From positions 1 through 10,110 of IMG/VR virus record IMGVR_UViG_2529293240_000015: 10,110 nt of DNA; one strand, given 5' to 3'. Shown in pieces: positions 40 to 7,543 of the stretch. The notes under the pieces are model-generated. The model saw only the letters and a list, made by a program, of their open reading frames with translations. It was not told the DNA's origin and did not search any database. How positions within the stretch are numbered: position 1 is the first letter of the stretch; every line of letters begins with the position of its first letter. The position numbers and the translations under genes are program-made. This DNA is from a virus (Duplodnaviria > Heunggongvirae > Uroviricota > Caudoviricetes).

Positions 40-250
40 TGTATTGATTCACTTGAAGTACGAAAAAACCGGGAGAACATTGGATTATTCGGGATCTGAT
101 GGGATTAGATTTGGTGGGGCTTGCAAGCCTGTAGTACAAATTTTAGGCGTTAACCAATGAAACGCGAAAGATAGTAAAAAATTGCTTTTGTTTCATTGAA
201 AAAACGAAAACAAAAACACTATAAATCATTTCAATCATAGCTTCAAAAAA
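40..250 (+). other. Mu-type left end (attL) with transposase-binding repeats (L1-L3 region)
   Basis: Terminal 5'-TG; repeated TGxTTCAYT...CGAAA(A) motifs, e.g. TTGATTCACTTGAAGTACGAAAAAA near 44..68 and TGTTTCATTGAAAAAACGAAAAC near 199..221; matches recalled Mu left-end sequence almost base for base. Extent is approximate. Confidence 0.7.
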
Positions 251-375
251 CGTTCAAAACCGATAACAACCAGGCTGTCACCAAATGACTCATATCACAA
301 ATCAGCTCATGCCGTTTAGGTATGTTACATGTGTGATTATGTGAGGTTAAGTATGTTTTAGCTGGCTCATGGTTG

Positions 376-885
376 TTATACGGCTTTTTTCGCATCTTGT
401 GGTTCCAACAAAGGAGCTACAGGCTCTTCCTGTTTATGAACACCATACATTGACAAAATCTCTTGGCGAGTTTCTGGAGGTAATTTATGCAGCGCCAAAG
501 CTGTTTGTAGTGTTTGGCGATCAATACCCAGCGTTGCCAATAGGGTGTCAACGGAGATGGAGGGGCGTTCTTGCATTAATCCGGAAAGCCCATATTTAGC
601 CATGTTTAGCTCTATCTCTCGGACTTCATTTTCTCCTAGTTTATTGATTAACAGGGAGAACATTTTCAATGTATCAGCATTCATTTCTTCGATAGCAATT
701 TTTTGCATAGCCGGTATTGCCGGGATATATTCAACCCCAGGCCCGCGACGCCCTTCTTGTGAACGCTTCGGCCATCCTTCTTTCTTTGCTCGTTTATGCA
801 CCCCCTGTATTGTCCCAGGCATTCCATCCAGTTCAGTAATTTGTTTGGGTGTCATCCACTGGTTTATCTCATTTGCGCTTTTCAT
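376..885 (-). CDS. c: Mu-like phage repressor c (immunity repressor), 169 aa
   Basis: Divergent from ner, as in Mu. N-terminal motif LDGMPGTIQGVHKRAKKEGWPKRSQEGRRGPGVEY is paralogous to the N-terminus of the transposase in this same window ([33 protein letters not shown]); the repressor and MuA share this DNA-binding domain in Mu. Confidence 0.8.
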   Translation of the reverse strand: MKSANEINQWMTPKQITELDGMPGTIQGVHKRAKKEGWPKRSQEGRRGPGVEYIPAIPAMQKIAIEEMNADTLKMFSLLINKLGENEVREIELNMAKYGLSGLMQERPSISVDTLLATLGIDRQTLQTALALHKLPPETRQEILSMYGVHKQEEPVAPLLEPQDAKKAV

Positions 886-1047
886 AAACTAAGTTTACCA
901 GATTTATCTATATAAAAATCAATGGATTACAAAATAAACCACATCAACTGATATAAATCGATTGGGTTTATTTGGTTTATATGGCAATGTATAAAACAGA
1001 TAATCAAGACGAATTATTTGTTTTGATAACCCTTTATCATACGCAAT
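886..1047. promoter_or_regulatory. c/ner divergent operator and early promoter region (Mu O1-O3, Pe/Pc equivalent) with an IHF consensus match
   Basis: AT-rich 160-bp intergenic region between divergent c and ner; AATCAATGGATTA at 917..929 fits the IHF consensus WATCAANNNNTTR; repeated GGTTTAT motifs at about 975..995. Individual operators not delimited. Confidence 0.5.
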
Positions 1048-1302
1048 ATGGTTGGTGTGCGAAAGATGAGTAACGATTGGCATCGGGCCGACGTGATTGC
1101 GGCCCTCAAAAAAACAGGAACCCCTCTGGCAAAATTGTCCAGACGTTCAGGTTATTCAACCGGGACGCTTGCAAATGCATTAGTCAGGCCATGGCCTAAA
1201 GGTGAACGCATTATTGCTGACGCCTTAAACATGAAACCTGAGGAAATTTGGCCTAGTAGATATCTAAGGGATCACAATGAGAGAGTGGATATCAGCAATT
1301 GA
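1048..1302 (+). CDS. ner: Ner-like DNA-binding transcriptional regulator (Mu Ner / E. coli Nlp family)
   Basis: DWHRADVIAALKK...TLANAL..PWPKGERIIADAL..KPEEIWPSRY matches the Ner/Nlp family signature. True start may be the second ATG at 1066 (MSNDWHR...). Confidence 0.85.
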   Translation: MVGVRKMSNDWHRADVIAALKKTGTPLAKLSRRSGYSTGTLANALVRPWPKGERIIADALNMKPEEIWPSRYLRDHNERVDISN

Positions 1303-2912
1303 ATGCATGGGTTTATCTGGTTTACCTGGTTCATTAATGGGGGGTTCACAAAAGAGCTCAGAGAGAAGGATGGCTCAAGAGAAGAAGAGAAGGAATTAGA
1401 GGGGTTGCTTACGAATACCATATATCTTCTCTTCCTAACATTGCTCGAGCTGAAGTTTTGCTCCAACAAGGAAAATTTAAAACCAGTCAGGGATGTTTTG
1501 AAATCGCCCGCCCCACGCTGGAAGCTCATGATTATGATCGTGAGGCACTATGGAGCAAATGGGATAAAGCCAGCGATTCCCAGCGCAGCCTGGCTGAAAA
1601 ATGGTTGCCCTCAATTCAGGCCACAGACGAAATGCTGAACCAGGGGATTTCAACGAAAACGGCTTTTGCGACCGTTGCAGGGCATTACCAGGTCAGCGCA
1701 TCCACTTTGCGGGACAAGTATTACCAGGTACAGAAGTTTGCGAAGCCTGACTGGGCGGCTGCACTTGTTGATGGACGTGGAGCATCCCGTCGCAATGTTC
1801 ACAAAAGTGAATTTGACAAGGATGCCTGGCAGTTTCTGATTGCAGATTATCTGCGACCGGAAAAACCCGCCTTCCGCAAATGTTATGAGCGTCTGGAACT
1901 GGCAGCCCGCGAGCATGGCTGGAGTATTCCCTCCCGTGCCACGGCCTTTCGCCGGATTCAGCAACTGGACGAGGCAATGGTTGTTGCCTGTCGTGAAGGT
2001 GAACATGCACTGATGCATCTGATACCGGCACAGCAGCGAACTGTGGAACACCTGGACGCCATGCAGTGGATCAACGGCGACGGTTATCTGCATAACGTCT
2101 TTGTACGCTGGTTTAACGGTGATGTGATCCGTCCGAAAACATGGTTCTGGCAGGATGTGAAAACCCGAAAAATTCTGGGCTGGCGCTGCGATGTGAGCGA
2201 GAACATTGATTCAATTCGCCTCTCGTTCATGGATGTTGTGACTCGCTACAGTATCCCGGAGGATTTTCACATCACCATTGATAACACCCGTGGTGCTGCG
2301 AATAAATGGCTGACGGGAGGCGCGCCCAATCGCTACCGCTTTAAGGTAAAAGAGGACGATCCAAAAGGACTGTTTTTACTGATGGGTGCGAAAATGCACT
2401 GGACAAGCGTTGTTGCCGGTAAAGGCTGGGGCCAGGCAAAACCTGTTGAACGTGCTTTCGGTGTTGGTGGGCTTGAGGAATACGTTGATAAGCATCCGGC
2501 ACTGGCTGGCGCATATACGGGGCCAAATCCGCAGGCAAAACCTGATAACTATGGCGACCGCGCTGTTGATGCAGAGCTGTTTCTGAAAACCCTTGCCGAA
2601 GGTGTGGCGATGTTCAATGCCAGAACAGGCCGTGAAACAGAAATGTGCGGGGGCAAACTCTCGTTTGATGATGTTTTCGAGCGTGAATACGCCAGAACGA
2701 TTGTGCGTAAGCCAACCGAAGAACAAAAACGGATGCTGTTACTGCCTGCCGAGGCAGTGAACGTTTCACGCAAAGGCGAGTTTACGCTTAAAGTTGGCGG
2801 CTCCCTTAAAGGCGCGAAAAACGTTTATTACAACATGGCATTAATGAATGCCGGAGTGAAAAAAGTTGTGGTCAGATTTGATCCACAGCAGTTACACAGC
2901 ACGGTTTATTGA
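1277..2912 (+). pseudogene. A: Mu-like transposase A, pseudogene: +1 frameshift in G6 run at 1339..1344 and C-terminal truncation by IS600 at 2910
   Basis: ATG at 1277 gives [23 protein letters not shown] (cf. Mu MELWVSPKECANLPGLPKTSAGV); after GGGGGG the homologous frame shifts by one base ([10 protein letters not shown]...[27 protein letters not shown]...), continuing through the DDE core ([19 protein letters not shown]) to ...QQLHSTVY, where the TGA stop is supplied by the IS600 terminus. Mu A has about 100 further C-terminal residues (CYTLDGRF...) that are absent. Confidence 0.9.
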
Positions 2913-2973
2913 GGTAGCCTGAGTTTAACGGACACTCCTTCCTGAAATAGAATGGCATCAGAAGGAGCTAATA

Positions 2974-3276
2974 ATGAGCAGAAAAACCCAACGTTACTCT
3001 AAAGAGTTCAAAGCCGAAGCTGTCAGAACGGTTCTTGAAAATCAACTTTCGATCAGTGAAGGCGCTTCCCGATTATCTCTTCCTGAAGGCACTTTAGGAC
3101 AATGGGTTACCGCCGCCAGAAAAGGGCTCGGTACTCCTGGTTCCCGCACGGTGGCTGAACTGGAATCTGAAATTCTGCAACTGCGTAAGGCGTTAAATGA
3201 AGCTCGCCTTGAGCGAGATATATTAAAAAAAGCAACAGCGTATTTTGCACAGGAGTCGCTGAAAAATACGCGTTAA
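2974..3276 (+). CDS. IS600 OrfA (IS3-family transposase N-terminal, HTH/leucine-zipper protein)
   Basis: MSRKTQRYSKEFKAEAVRTVLENQLSISEGASRLSLPEGTLGQWV...; AGGAG Shine-Dalgarno at 2963..2967. Confidence 0.9.
   Translation: MSRKTQRYSKEFKAEAVRTVLENQLSISEGASRLSLPEGTLGQWVTAARKGLGTPGSRTVAELESEILQLRKALNEARLERDILKKATAYFAQESLKNTR
3225..3231 (+). other. IS600 programmed -1 ribosomal frameshift slippery run (A7 followed by G) joining orfA to orfB
   Basis: tta aaa aaa g in the orfA frame; shifting -1 here continues in the orfB frame (orfB is in frame 0, orfA in frame 1), giving the OrfAB fusion typical of IS3-family elements. Confidence 0.7.
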
Positions 3277-3311
3277 TCGAACAATGGCGACAACAATTTC
3301 CCATTGAAGCG

Positions 3312-4130
3312 ATGTGTCAGGTATTTGGTGTATCCAGGAGCGGTTATTACAACTGGGTACAGCATGAACCCTCAGACAGAAAACAAAGTGATGAGCGGCT
3401 AAAACTGGAGATTAAGGTGGCACATATCCGCACTCGCGAAACATATGGAACCCGGCGGCTCCAGACGGAGCTGGCAGAGAATGGCATCATCGTTGGTCGT
3501 GACCGACTGGCACGTCTTCGTAAGGAGCTAAGGCTACGCTGTAAGCAGAAACGCAAGTTCAGAGCGACTACGAACCCGAACCACAATCTGCCAGTTGCGC
3601 CAAATCTGCTGAACCAGACGTTCGCTCCTACAGCACCAAATCAGGTCTGGGTGGCGGACCTGACGTATGTTGCCACACAGGAGGGATGGTTGTACCTCGC
3701 TGGCATCAAAGATGTTTATACGTGCGAAATTGTCGGCTACGCCATGGGAGAGCGCATGACAAAAGAGCTGACAGGTAAAGCCCTGTTTATGGCGCTCAGG
3801 AGCCAGCGCCCACCTGCCGGGCTAATCCACCACTCTGATCGAGGTTCACAGTACTGCGCATACGATTACCGGGTCATACAGGAGCAGTTTGGTCTGAAAA
3901 CATCAATGTCGCGTAAAGGTAACTGTTACGACAACGCTCCGATGGAAAGCTTCTGGGGAACGCTGAAAAATGAGAGCCTGAGCCACTATCGTTTTAATAA
4001 CCGGGATGAAGCCATCTCAGTAATACGGGAATACATTGAGATTTTCTACAATCGTCAGCGTCGTCACTCTCGTCTGGGGAATATCTCCCCGGCAGCCTTC
4101 AGGGAAAAATATCATCAGATGGCTGCTTAA
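3312..4130 (+). CDS. IS600 OrfB (IS3-family DDE transposase catalytic domain; expressed as OrfAB fusion)
   Basis: ...QVWVADLTYV...IHHSDRGSQY...NAPMESFWGTLKNE... is the IS3-family integrase-like DDE core; the reading frame is open upstream of the 3312 ATG back to the slippery site. Confidence 0.9.
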   Translation: MCQVFGVSRSGYYNWVQHEPSDRKQSDERLKLEIKVAHIRTRETYGTRRLQTELAENGIIVGRDRLARLRKELRLRCKQKRKFRATTNPNHNLPVAPNLLNQTFAPTAPNQVWVADLTYVATQEGWLYLAGIKDVYTCEIVGYAMGERMTKELTGKALFMALRSQRPPAGLIHHSDRGSQYCAYDYRVIQEQFGLKTSMSRKGNCYDNAPMESFWGTLKNESLSHYRFNNRDEAISVIREYIEIFYNRQRRHSRLGNISPAAFREKYHQMAA

Positions 4131-4173
4131 AAAAAGAACAAATGGTAGTGTCCGCTATTGCCAGTACACCTCA

Positions 4174-4890
4174 AACAATAAGGTCATTACAGATACAGGT
4201 TGCGGAAATATTTGTCTTGCAGGTGCTGTGGTGGAAGTTACTGGCACTCGCGGCGCAATGACCATACGCGTTACTACGCCAAGTACGTCCAGCGGCGGCG
4301 GAATCACTAACGCTCAATTCACTTATATTAATCATGGTGATGCTTATGCTCCTGGCTGGCGAAGAGACTACAATACGAAAAACCAGCAGCCTGCATTTGC
4401 TTTAGGGCAAACAGGAAGCAGGGTTGCAAATGATAAAGCTGTTGGCTGGAACTGGAATAGCGGTGTTTATGATGCAAATATCAGCGGTGCATCAACATTA
4501 ATCCTCCACTTCAATAAGAATACGGGGAGCTGCCCTGCTGTACAGTTCCGTGTGAATTATAAGAACGGCGGTATTTTTTATCGTTCAGCGCGTGATGGTT
4601 ATGGATTTGAGGCTGGCTGGTCAGAGTTTTACACCACAACACGCAAGCCATCAGCGAGAGATGTTGGCGCATATACGCAGGCAGAATGTAACTCAAGGTT
4701 TATTACAGGTATTCGCCTTGGTGGTCTGTCATCTGTTCGGACATGGAATGGTCCCGGCTGGTCTGACAGGTCAGGTTATGTTGTTACCGGTTCCGTTAAC
4801 TCAAACAGAGATGAACTAATTGATACAACTCAGGCAAGGCCAATTCAGTATTGCATTAATGGGACGTGGTATAACGCGGGGAGTATTTAA
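4174..4890 (+). pseudogene. S: Tail-fibre variable C-terminal region (Mu S variable part equivalent), 5'-truncated at the IS600 boundary
   Basis: Frame is open from inside IS600 (the track ORF at 4036 is a chimera); C-terminus ...RPIQYCINGTWYNAGSI parallels the end of the minus-strand cassette (...[17 protein letters not shown]); immediately followed by a tail-fibre assembly gene. No phage-derived start or constant region is present. Confidence 0.7.
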
Positions 4891-4892
4891 CG

Positions 4893-5426
4893 ATGATGCA
4901 CTTAAAAAACATTTCTGCTGGTAATCCTGAAACAAAAGAGCAATACCAGCTAACGAAACAATTTAACATCAAATGGCTTTATACAGAGGATGGGAAAAAC
5001 TGGTATGAGGAACAAAAGAACTTTCAGCCTGATACGTTGAAAATGGTCTATGACCACAACGGCGTTATTATTTGTATTGAAAAGGATGTTTCAGCAATTA
5101 ATCCGGAAGGCGCAAGCGTCGTTGAGGTTCCTGATATTACAGCAAATCACCGGGCTGATATTTCAGGTAAATGGATGTTCAAAGATGGCATAGTGATAAA
5201 GCGAACTTATACCGGGGAAGAGCAGAGGCAACAAGTGGAAAATGAAAAGCAAAGCCTGTTGCAACTTGTCAGGGATAAAACCCAGCTATGGGACTCACAG
5301 CTACGGCTGGGCATCATTTCCGCCGGGAATAAGCAGAAATTAACCGAGTGGATGCTCTACGCGCAGAAGGTCGAATCCACAGACACCTCCAGTCTGCCAG
5401 TAACGTTTCCCGAACAACCAGAATGA
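4893..5426 (+). CDS. U: Tail-fibre assembly protein (Mu U-like chaperone), 177 aa
   Basis: MMHLKNISAGN...DGKNWYEEQKNFQPDT...[28 protein letters not shown] is the Tfa/U family signature; starts 2 nt after the tail-fibre stop. Confidence 0.8.
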   Translation: MMHLKNISAGNPETKEQYQLTKQFNIKWLYTEDGKNWYEEQKNFQPDTLKMVYDHNGVIICIEKDVSAINPEGASVVEVPDITANHRADISGKWMFKDGIVIKRTYTGEEQRQQVENEKQSLLQLVRDKTQLWDSQLRLGIISAGNKQKLTEWMLYAQKVESTDTSSLPVTFPEQPE

Positions 5427-5431
5427 GAGAA

Positions 5432-5457
5432 GGCCCGCTATCGGGCCTTAATTTTTA
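5432..5457 (+). terminator. Rho-independent terminator hairpin between the convergent U and U' genes
   Basis: GGCCCG-ctat-CGGGCC stem-loop (5432..5447) followed by TTAATTTTTA on the plus strand, directly after the U stop codon. Confidence 0.6.
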
Positions 5458-5982
5458 CTCTGGTTTTTGTGGCCATTCTGGCTTTGCCGTATCCACACGG
5501 CTGACCAGAACACTGTAGCGTTCCCATGACTCCAGTCGTGCGCGTTCCTCATCTGTTGCCATATTCAGCCTGACAGAGCGCTCCAGCGGCTGGATGACTG
5601 ATTCAGCTTCGGAAAGCAATGCGGCTTTTTGTGATTCGGCCTGTTGCTGCTGTTCGTCTGCCGTATAAATCCGCTTAACCACAGCTCCGTCCTTAAACAT
5701 CCACTTCCCGGAATCATCGGCACGACGATTTGCTGTTATATCGGGGACCTCAACGACGCTAAAGCCTTCAGGATTAAGCGTGGAGGCATCTTTAGTGATG
5801 GCGACAATAATATTATTTTCATCGTAAACAATCTTTATTGTATCTGGCTGAAAGTTCTTCACTTCCCCATACCAGTTTTTTCCGTCTTCTGTCCACAACC
5901 AGATTACGTCAAAATTCTTTGTTAATTCGTACTGTTCCAGTGTTTTAGCGTTACCCGCTTTAATGTTCTTTAAGTGCATCAT
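5455..5982 (-). CDS. U': Tail-fibre assembly protein (Mu U'-like chaperone), 175 aa
   Basis: Paralogue of the plus-strand U ([11 protein letters not shown]...[16 protein letters not shown]...[19 protein letters not shown]), encoded convergently, as in the Mu invertible G segment. Confidence 0.8.
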
Positions 5983-5983
5983 A

Positions 5984-6970
5984 TTAAACGCTCGCTACAT
6001 TATACCAAGTGCCATTTATATACTTTTGAATCGGTCTGTAATAAACACCCGCAATATTATCGGCAGAGTTGGAACCTGTATCCTGAACATTAATACCAGA
6101 CAATACATGACCTGAAGGGCACTGAAAATTCCATGTTTGCCAGTTGTTCACTCCATAATATTGCTGTGAACCAAGTCGAACATCTTTCACATATCTGGAA
6201 TCAAAATTGCCATAGTTGCCGGGAATAACTTGCGAACCGCAAAGCCAGTTCCCGTTATTATCCATGTACGCCTGACCATCGGTGCCATTGGCTGTCCTTG
6301 AGTTATTAATCATGTAGATGCCAAATTGCCTATTCCCCAGCCCACCAATTACGAATTTACGGTCGGTATGGTCCTGGCGAAGCAATGCCTGCGCACCATC
6401 GTTGGATACCGCATTACGGCCCATAATAACGTTCTGGTCACGCATATGAATCCACATGCCTGTACTGCTGTTAATTAAAAAACGGTTTGTAAATATATCT
6501 CCTGTAACAACCAGACCATGCCCCATGCTTATCCGGCCAGTTCTGAGATTAAGCGTAAAGGGGCGTAGTGGCCCTATATTACCATTTTCCCCTTCATTCT
6601 CTCGTGTAGGGATGATATGCAGGCATTCTTCAGAACGACGAAAAATGGCACCAAAAGATGAATTAAATATTCTCAGTGCATTGACCGTCGATATTTTTAC
6701 TTCACTGCTGAAAAGGGCTTTAACAAGAACATACAGAGCATCCCATTTAAGATTCATCAGGTCTTTAACCCGGCCGCCAGTGAGGTGGTGTCTCCATTTG
6801 AAATACTCATTGCCGTTGTCGCCTGTTTCAAACCACATGTATGAATCAGTATCGCTGTCGGCATCATTTTTAAATCCAATCTTTGCCCAGTCAGTATTCC
6901 GAATCCAGGCAAGGATTGAGTCGTTTTCAAAAGTAAGTCCACCGGACAACGTATCGCCATTTTTTTGCAC
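5984..6970 (-). CDS. S': Alternative tail-fibre variable cassette (Mu S' variable part equivalent); not a self-standing gene in the intact phage
   Basis: C-terminus ...[19 protein letters not shown]; stop is 1 nt from the U' start; the reading frame stays open upstream through the gix-like site (to at least 7043). In Mu this cassette is only expressed after inversion fuses it to the constant part of S. The track start at 6970 is a GTG. Confidence 0.7.
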
Positions 6971-6995
6971 GGCGTTACCAGCCTTGTTTACCGTT

Positions 6996-7021
6996 TCCTG
7001 TAAACCGAGGGGCCGTTTCTG
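6996..7021. other. gix-like recombination site at the right border of the tail-fibre cassette region (only one half-site recognisable)
   Basis: TTCCTGTAAACCGAGG at 6996..7011 matches the Gin crossover site as I recall it (TTCCTGTAAACC-GA-GGTTTTGGATAA); the following half (GGCCGTTTCTGG) does not match. No partner site was found at the left border near 4174. Confidence 0.45.
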
Positions 7022-7063
7022 GCCTGCATGGCATGATTTCCGCTTTTAAACGGGGAATTCAGC

Positions 7064-7261
7064 GTGCTGATTGGCTATGTAAGGGTATCAACAAATGACC
7101 AGAATACAGACCTGCAACGAAACGCTCTTGTTTGTGCAGGATGTGAACAAATATTTGAAGATAAATTAAGCGGAACAAGGACAGACCGACCGGGATTAAA
7201 ACGTGCTTTAAAGCGCCTTCAAAAAGGAACGCATATAGAAAACGACGATCGAATCAATTAA
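7064..7261 (+). pseudogene. gin: gin DNA invertase remnant: in-frame internal deletion leaving 65 aa (N-terminal 55 aa plus C-terminal THIENDDRIN)
   Basis: MLIGYVRVSTNDQNTDLQRNALVCAGCEQIFEDKLSGTRTDRPGLKRALKRLQKG matches the Gin/Hin serine-recombinase N-terminus including the catalytic Ser (VRVST); it then joins directly to the recalled Gin C-terminal tail (..HIENDDRIN). About 128 codons of catalytic and HTH domains are missing, relative to a roughly 190-aa Gin. Confidence 0.85.
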
Positions 7262-7354
7262 ATCGATCTGTATTACCGATCGATTATGTCCCGATAACCA
7301 CACCCGACTGATGAGATTTTTTAAGATAACGGCGAATTGATGCAAGGAGGTGAA
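7247..7354 (+). promoter_or_regulatory. mom operon regulatory region: three GATC (Dam) sites including an 8-bp inverted repeat, upstream of com
   Basis: GATC at 7247..7250, 7265..7268 and 7278..7281; AATCGATC (7261..7268) and GATCGATT (7278..7285) form an inverted repeat. In Mu this cluster is the Dam-methylation-sensitive OxyR-binding region of Pmom. GGAGG Shine-Dalgarno at 7346..7350. Confidence 0.65.
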
Positions 7355-7543
7355 ATGAAATCAATTCGCTGTAAGAACTGCAACAAACTGTTATTTAAAG
7401 CGGATTCCTTTGATCACATTGAAATCAGGTGTCCGCGTTGCAAACGTCACATCATAATGCTGAATGCCTGCGAGCATCCCACGGAGAAACATTGTGGGAA
7501 AAGAGAAGAAATCACGCATTCTGACGAAACCGTGCGTTATTGA
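7355..7543 (+). CDS. com: Com, zinc-finger translational activator of mom (62 aa)
   Basis: [61 protein letters not shown]; a Cys4 protein essentially identical to my recollection of Mu Com. Start chosen at the ATG preceded by GGAGG rather than the track ORF start at 7337. Confidence 0.85.

Follow-up and report, generated by a model that had tools for sequence, protein, structure and literature searches.

The 65-codon open reading frame at positions 7064–7261 of the window (the whole stretch of 10,110 nucleotides that was analyzed) is the gene of the Mu-type G-segment invertase, gin, minus 384 bp of its middle. This allele, referred to below as gin-delta, is natural and previously undescribed, and it lies in a decayed Mu-like prophage inserted in dpiA of the Shigella flexneri chromosome. 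Overall, the evidence makes it very likely that gin-delta is a null allele, that it arose by a single illegitimate deletion, and that the SfMu-like prophage carrying it decayed after insertion into dpiA. A mildly interesting twist in what is otherwise ordinary prophage decay is that sister prophages elsewhere in the chromosome, themselves much more complete, carry the same deletion.

The gin-delta Gene

The gene and its deletion joint are located in the window as follows.

7064–7261, plus strand: gin with an internal deletion (gin-delta); GTG start, 65 codons, corresponding to Gin residues 1–55 plus 184–193
7226–7228, plus strand: deletion joint, a hybrid Gly codon GGA, in which 7226 derives from gin nucleotide 163, 7227 is ambiguous, and 7228 derives from gin nucleotide 549

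An earlier reading of this DNA, made from the sequence only, had proposed that an in-frame internal deletion joins the N-terminal 55 residues of Gin to its last 10 residues. Alignments of DNA and protein and phmmer searches all agree with this proposal. In alignments with the gin regions of Mu (NC_000929) and of the Shigella phage SfMu (KP010268), the gin-delta DNA was found to be collinear with gin at about 97–99% identity and to be interrupted by a single clean gap of 384 bp—that is, nucleotides 165–548 (or equally 164–547) of Mu gin, comprising codons 56–183. In the protein alignment, residues 1–55 of the product are 100% identical to Gin of both Mu and SfMu, and the last 10 residues, THIENDDRIN, are those of SfMu Gin residues 184–193, with the corresponding Mu tail being AHIENDDRIN. 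The Gin C-terminus HIENDDRIN, as given in the earlier reading, is therefore correct, being present in the tails of Mu Gin, SfMu Gin, and gin-delta. In phmmer searches against the PDB, residues 1–56 were matched to Gin (4m6f and 3uj3) with an E value of 7e-35, and a second stretch of the product was matched to residues 179–193 of the Gin chain. The chance that the frame is either an unrelated short open reading frame or a sequencing or assembly artefact is negligible, the former being rejected by this E value against Gin crystal-structure sequences, and the latter by the same joint having been found in 23 independently fetched loci, closed chromosomes included.

The losses from the product were also as had been claimed, with most of the catalytic domain and the helix-turn-helix (HTH) domain gone and the N-terminus with the catalytic serine kept. 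In Pfam searches, the product matched the Resolvase profile at positions 2–63 of 145 (56 bits versus a cut-off of 23.3) and did not match HTH_7 (PF02796); Mu Gin in the Pfam search matched Resolvase at positions 2–144 and, in addition, HTH_7 at residues 138–181. [quoted passage not shown] Both the complete catalytic domain, with D64/R65/R68 and helix E, and the whole C-terminal HTH domain are missing, residues 56–183 being gone. The residues D64/R65/R68 of Gin are taken here to be the equivalents of D67/R68/R71 of gamma-delta resolvase, with the roles of these residues as in the established resolvase and invertase literature.

The Deletion Joint and Its Origin

Alignment with Mu gin around positions 7225–7232, which had been suggested as a means of defining the end points, placed the joint at 7226–7228. 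The G at 7226 is found only in the left parent (GGT), the A at 7228 is found only in the right parent (CGA), and the G at 7227 is common to both. Each parent thus contributes part of codon 55, and the resulting hybrid, GG/A, still encodes Gly. The exact microhomology at the joint is 1 nt (G), within an imperfect AAA(G/C)G. The in-frame character of the deletion had been thought to suggest an origin between short repeats, a view which the single shared nucleotide does not bear out, and a short-repeat (slippage) origin was rejected as a positive inference. Indeed, an ambiguity of at least 1 nt is expected in about 44% of random joints, and one third of deletions are in frame by chance, so that neither the frame nor the joint is informative about mechanism. 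In the proposed scheme, one illegitimate deletion of 384 bp, with a joint essentially without homology, would have produced gin-delta.

It was also considered whether Gin or a related invertase had recombined two quasi-gix sites inside its own gene, in a site-specific self-deletion comparable with what Cin does at quasi-sites in phage P1. In joint-compatible registers, 11 of the 24 gix positions are matched at each breakpoint, compared with 7.0 ± 2.0 for the gin background, and the left site contains TCAAAAA, as found in invertase half-sites; the chance of both breakpoints reaching at least 11 matches was calculated, post hoc, to be about 0.007. However, this statistic was picked after the data had been seen, the similarity is weak, and the best matches are oppositely oriented. 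Furthermore, the central dinucleotides of the two sites are unlike (GT versus GA), whereas serine invertases require identical 2-bp cores. Wild-type Gin strongly disfavors deletion between direct sites, owing to the topological filter of Gin and Hin. Self-deletion by an invertase is accordingly regarded as very unlikely, and an illegitimate deletion is preferred.

A side observation concerns Fis. About 10 nt upstream of each breakpoint (window 7203–7245) is a Fis-type 15-mer—on the left a candidate site at gin nucleotides 140–154, and on the right the footprinted −123 site of mom at nucleotides 525–539—and the two 15-mers are 385 bp apart, as compared with a deletion of 384 bp. In the deleted gene, the upstream 15-mer lies at about −124 of the mom start, in the place of the lost −123 site. 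The correspondence was noticed post hoc. Fis-associated illegitimate recombination as the origin of gin-delta is suggestive only, given a single event, a post hoc observation, and a putative left site, and was not adopted.

The Prophage Remnant in dpiA

The remnant, its flanks, and the genes to the left of gin-delta are as follows.

35–39: left 5-bp target-site duplication CCCAG in dpiA (...GCCCCAG followed directly by TGTATTGATTCAC, the Mu left end)
40–8304, plus strand: remnant of an SfMu/Mu-like prophage that keeps both intact Mu termini and lacks about 29.7 kb of internal sequence
376–885, minus strand: repressor c, 169 aa, HTH_Tnp_Mu_1 (Pfam PF02316 on the identical product)
1048–1302, plus strand: ner, SfsB/Ner-type HTH
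1277–2909, plus strand: transposase A', C-terminus cut by IS600, with an extra +1 G frameshift relative to locus L026
2910–4173, plus strand: IS600, 1264 bp, IS3 family, annotated as "IS3-like element IS600 family transposase"
4174–4890, plus strand: 3' part of the variable tail-fiber segment Sv, gp37_C; the 5' part, gixL, and Sc are deleted
4893–5426, plus strand: U, tail-fiber assembly protein, Caudo_TAP
5455–5982, minus strand: U', Caudo_TAP
5984–6970, minus strand: S'v, variable part of the alternative tail fiber, Gp34_trimer
8305–8309: right 5-bp target duplication CCCAG (...CGCCGCTTCA followed directly by CCCAGCCGTT, at the Mu right end)
8305–8648, minus strand: 5' part of dpiA (citB), split by the prophage; NF007467 DpiA, residues 1–118 of the 226-position profile
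8617–10110, minus strand: dpiB (citA), sensor kinase, running off the window; sCache_3_2 and HATPase_c; citC-G adjoin

BLAST comparison with SfMu (KP010268) showed four matching segments, with window positions 40–270, 1446–2911, 4172–7227, and 7223–8304 corresponding to SfMu 1–233, 1437–2902, 32618–35684, and 36064–37146, respectively. In the alignment, the remnant starts at the first base of SfMu and ends at the last one, and the 5-bp sequence CCCAG is duplicated directly outside these termini; intact Mu termini together with this duplication demonstrate a genuine Mu transposition into dpiA (citB). Positions 1–39 of the window are the distal part of dpiA, and the reading frame of the 5' part continues into the Mu end up to position 8265. 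The insertion cuts the citrate two-component response regulator after about residue 115.

Between the termini, the Mu-like order c-ner-A ... S-U-U'-S'-gin-com-mom is present, and a complete inducible genome (B, C, lysis, head, and tail genes) is absent. IS600 stands in place of SfMu positions 2903–32617 (~29.7 kb), gixL included, and all of the head and tail genes as well as the late activator C were lost in the same IS600-associated deletion. The flanks of IS600 are unlike each other (TAT versus AAC), with no 3-bp duplication, which argues for an IS-associated deletion and not a simple insertion. In addition to being truncated by IS600, A' is frameshifted by an extra G in a G-run (about 1339–1345) relative to L026, in which an A' of 544 aa is called.

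From 376 to 1445, the remnant has an immunity region (c, ner, the operators, and the 5' end of A) strongly divergent from its SfMu counterpart, with 79–82% identity in two short left-end stretches only, as compared with 97.8% identity from position 1446 on. On an otherwise SfMu-like backbone, the remnant thus appears to carry immunity of a different type. The protein collection has the exact c protein indexed in 6687 blocks. In CP000266 and many other S. flexneri genomes, the c-ner-A'-IS600 part abuts the head genes of another phage, which indicates IS600-mediated inversions.

The Inversion Switch and the Neighboring cis-Acting Regions

The elements of the switch and the genes to the right of gin-delta are as follows.

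6995–7010, plus strand: gixR remnant; the inner half-site TTCCTGTAAACC, GA core, and GG are kept
7085–7217: retained 5' gin segment, likely the recombinational enhancer (sis), containing all Fis-consensus-like 15-mers, gin nucleotides 22–154
7229–7334, plus strand: retained mom control region, with the Fis −98 site region, GATC at 7247, 7265, and 7278, and the −10 element TAAGAT
7355–7543, plus strand: com, Zn_ribbon_Com
7494–8189, plus strand: mom, 231 aa as called and 241 aa from the upstream ATG at 7464; PF25680 Mom

An 11-bp deletion between positions 7010 and 7011 has taken the outer half-site of gixR, TTTTAGATAAT, and no second gix copy (gixL) was found in the window, which therefore contains a single 16-bp partial gix. 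Two inverted gix sites, absent here, are present in the sister prophages L014 and L027. The inversion switch is thus broken in three ways in the window copy—gin deleted, gixL lost, and gixR half gone—and its G segment is frozen for three independent reasons, with gin-delta remaining as a fossil.

The statement of the sequence-only reading that the 5' coding region of gin is retained also stands. Nucleotides 1–164 of gin are kept with 1 change relative to Mu, and the Fis-consensus-like 15-mers, which are candidate sites, occur at nucleotides 22–154. The three Fis sites of the recombinational enhancer have been located in gin ~550 bp upstream of mom +1 (PMC3378877), a distance that puts them near gin nucleotide ~105. 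On the basis of this distance and of the candidate Fis sites, the recombinational enhancer is probably retained in gin-delta. With gixL gone and gixR half-deleted, the retained enhancer region would be without a target in the window copy.

On the other side of the joint, the mom start was placed at window position ~7334 from the primer position Mu 35746 (PMC3378877), so that the first retained base to the right of the joint corresponds to −106/−107 relative to this start. The footprinted Fis −123 site was lost with the deletion, and the −98 Fis region, three GATC (Dam) sites, the C-dependent promoter, com, and mom were all kept. The deletion therefore takes almost exactly the stretch of gin between two cis-acting regions, the 5' enhancer region and the mom control region. 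The sparing of both fits an allele that is tolerable in a working phage, an argument that is post hoc.

Separately, the com and mom reading frames are intact in the remnant although the late activator C, required for mom transcription, has been deleted. This suggests that com-mom persists there as a silent but undecayed toxic-modification module. The exact Mom protein was found to be indexed in 1484 blocks.

Distribution of the Joint

The exact 65-aa protein was found on 623 contigs, where it is called "recombinase family protein [Shigella flexneri]", and the identical joint was present in all 23 of the loci fetched through gin-delta, Mom, or the joint pattern. Searches with the joint pattern yielded 3 IMG/VR contigs and no match among GTDB species representatives or JGI metagenomes; the NCBI assemblies were reached through the exact-protein index. 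A contiguous match over the joint was found in 0 of 5426 complete E. coli genomes and 0 of 50,697 phage records, with full-coverage gin matches in these sets always consisting of two pieces 384 bp apart. The joint is a clean lineage-specific marker of Shigella flexneri-type genomes, absent from the complete E. coli genomes searched.

It had been asked whether a related phage encodes a naturally short protein of this form. In part this is so, since sister prophages carry the same deletion by inheritance, but no naturally short Gin family was found among the 120 best-scoring Gin relatives listed from a search of 5.8 billion proteins, these being 182–336 aa in length (nearly all 182–216 aa) and containing both domains.

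In the dpiA remnant of S. flexneri the allele is fixed. The joint and the 11-bp gixR deletion occur together in all 21 loci at the dpiA site, and the gixR deletion is absent from the three loci L005, L014, and L027. The dpiA-site loci vary in further IS1 and IS600 events, and one of them, L012, is 100% identical to window positions 4177–10110.

Sister Prophages at Other Sites

A different setting of gin-delta is provided by L027, a 20.7-kb locus from a 3.27-Mb contig (GCA_002968245.1), in which the joint is identical and both gix sites are intact. This locus carries tape-measure, baseplate, and tail-fiber genes, and the SfMu-like prophage is near-complete within the fetched DNA. Its Mu right end adjoins the interior of an IS600 beside flgJ-flgK-flgL-rne, and not dpiA (L027 9491–11963). 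A Mu terminus joined to the interior of an IS is a product of Mu transposition and not of IS recombination. The same Mu-end/IS600 junction, together with gin-delta-com-mom, was observed at positions 1–2086 of L005, an independent IMG/VR contig. Another sister prophage, L014, likewise near-complete within the fetched DNA, lies on a 31.4-kb contig (GCA_017137715.1) that stops exactly at the Mu right end; it contains the same joint and two intact gix sites. As a short-read contig, L014 could contain a chimeric join within a 177-bp stretch that is identical in all copies; L027 cannot reasonably be explained by such a join.

Between gixR and the Mu end, L027 is 100% identical to the window (L027 9518–10811, corresponding to window 7011–8304) and L014 is 99.7% identical to it, and the two sister prophages differ from each other at 4 positions in this right-end block. 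An identical joint within flanks of 99.7–100% identity points to a single deletion event. The deletion is thus old and happened once, and a mobile phage lineage either carried it or acquired it by transfer.

Relative to L014, SfMu, and the window, L027 has its G segment inverted. Between L014 and L027, the inner gix flanks (cttg and ctga) have changed places exactly, and the outer half-sites, TTTTAGATAAT by gin and TTTTGGATAA by Sc, are unmoved in both. Judged from this arrangement, the exchange of flanks would be the footprint of a precise gix-to-gix inversion. However, L014 and L027 share just 96.3% identity in the G segment, so that their opposite orientation is no proof of an inversion that took place after the loss of gin.

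Among the window, L014, L027, and SfMu, identity is 94–96% in the G segment (window 4174–6990) and 98–100% in the tail genes beside it and in the gin-mom block. This pattern indicates that G segments have been exchanged by recombination, with boundaries at gix.

Proposed Order of Events

The anatomy of the locus, the joint, its distribution, and the second insertion site are matters of observation, from which we distinguish the order of events that we infer. In the preferred order, the deletion most likely came first, in a phage still able to transpose. An SfMu-like prophage with gin-delta would then have transposed into dpiA of an S. flexneri ancestor, and this copy would subsequently have decayed through the ~29.7-kb IS600-associated deletion, the 11-bp deletion in gixR, and the truncation and frameshifting of transposase A. 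That the deletion preceded transposition into dpiA, into IS600 by flgJ, and elsewhere is considered probable, although by no means assured. This order is favored by the 11-bp gixR deletion, which lies 53 bp upstream of the gin start and is found in every dpiA copy and never in the other prophages.

The opposite order—with the deletion arising in the immobile dpiA remnant, and the gin-delta-com-mom-right-end block being later recombined or gene-converted into incoming SfMu-like phages that were intact in other respects and inserted at other sites afterwards—is less likely, but deserves consideration. A gixR-to-Mu-end block that is 100% identical beside a G segment that is ~95% identical shows that recombination has shuffled these phages, and the block could therefore have moved from the remnant into an incoming phage. 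Consistent with such a transfer, the near-identity of the block in L027 and L014 with the window extends neither to the adjoining G segment (only 95–96%) nor to the tail genes (about 98%), SfMu differs by about 3% in the same block, and the mosaic boundaries lie at gix. However, a transfer from the remnant would have had to leave behind, on each occasion, the closely linked gixR deletion that is present in 21 of the 21 dpiA copies, and it was never co-transferred. In addition, this order needs at least two separate transfers, or one transfer followed by divergence, to account for the 4 positions at which L014 and L027 differ. An origin of the deletion before transposition into dpiA is therefore preferred.

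Predicted Function of the 65-Residue Product

Serine recombinase biochemistry, including the structures of gamma-delta resolvase, Hin, and Gin, has established that helix E forms the dimer and tetramer interfaces and that the HTH domain binds DNA. A product with no D64/R65/R68, no helix E, and no HTH domain would be able neither to bind gix, nor to dimerize, nor to catalyze strand exchange. On these grounds of domain content and established biochemistry, gin-delta can be assigned as a null allele with high confidence. Scans of the window and of L027 for sigma-70 promoters and terminators near gin gave no hits.

The gin-delta frame is intact and invariant in hundreds of assemblies; without variation, selection on the frame is not separable from recent common descent. 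It could nonetheless be asked whether the frame is maintained as a micro-protein, for example a dominant-negative or regulatory one that blocks inversion by super-infecting Mu-like phages. The deletion is in frame, the start and stop are intact, Ser9 is kept, and the protein is identical on the 623 contigs. However, an in-frame outcome is expected by chance for one deletion in three, and a product without helix E and the DNA-binding domain has no obvious surface for poisoning Gin. Furthermore, the frame is not called as a gene in the annotations of L019, L020, and L023–L027, and the 120 best-scoring Gin relatives listed include no short ones. A maintained micro-protein is thus a decidedly improbable reading, and gin-delta is regarded as a pseudogene in a cryptic prophage, for which the annotation "recombinase family protein" should read as a remnant.

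Comparison with Known Systems

Like Gin of Mu (PDB 3uj3/4m6f) and of SfMu (AIY32352), gin-delta is located between S' and com-mom, and the inner half of gixR upstream and the 5' coding region of gin in the window are alike in these phages. Unlike in Mu and SfMu, codons 56–183 are missing, and the window contains no usable gix pair.

Cryptic SfMu-like prophages have been reported in many S. flexneri serotypes, with the SfMu host strain alone yielding a 1.5-kb gin-mom PCR product (Jakhetia and Verma, 2015; PMC4406740). The window is one such remnant, whereas that paper contains neither a remnant sequence nor a gin deletion. The gin-delta allele may explain why the 1.5-kb product was limited to the SfMu host strain (PMC4406740). 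In SfMu itself, gin is full-length and one gix repeat contains a 1-bp change, from which the authors proposed reduced or abolished inversion (PMC4406740); this is a different possible route to the loss of inversion than gin-delta. A link between gin-delta and the 3.7 versus 3.5 kb EcoRV band shift of the SfMu remnants was considered and rejected, the 3.7-kb EcoRV fragment of SfMu being located at 7323–11078, far from gin.

Two further comparisons can be drawn. Shigella dysenteriae reportedly contains a defective Mu prophage with pinD, whose product, PinD, is said to be active and to complement hin. That prophage is likewise decayed, resides in a Shigella chromosome, and has kept its G-segment/invertase end, but with an active PinD as opposed to the deleted gin-delta. 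Laboratory gin-minus or G-locked derivatives of Mu, such as Mu 445-5, which are classical tools, have a frozen G segment and are viable. L014 and L027 look like natural equivalents of these G-locked phages, one in each orientation. Unlike the laboratory gin-minus derivatives, gin-delta is natural, with a deletion within the gin coding sequence that spares the enhancer region and the mom control region.

Implications

The presence of gin-delta in near-complete prophages at other sites means that Mu-like phages without an invertase of their own have most likely persisted and moved in Shigella. A more far-reaching proposal is that gin-delta marks SfMu-like Shigella phages that remained mobile after invertase loss, with G being flipped in trans by a Din-family invertase of a co-resident Mu-like, P1-like, or e14-like element, or with the phages existing in two host-range-locked forms; this is rated as unlikely at present. 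In such a lineage, the cis elements that the deletion spares, namely both gix sites in L014 and L027, the 5' enhancer region, and the mom control region, would leave G a competent substrate for inversion. Inversion in trans, if true, would explain how two gin-delta prophages come to differ by a precise gix-to-gix inversion, and the opposite G orientations of L014 and L027 provide a testable case for either trans-inversion or host-range locking. A mobile gin-delta lineage, if true, would together with the gix change of SfMu point to repeated loss of tail-fiber switching in Shigella-adapted Mu phages.
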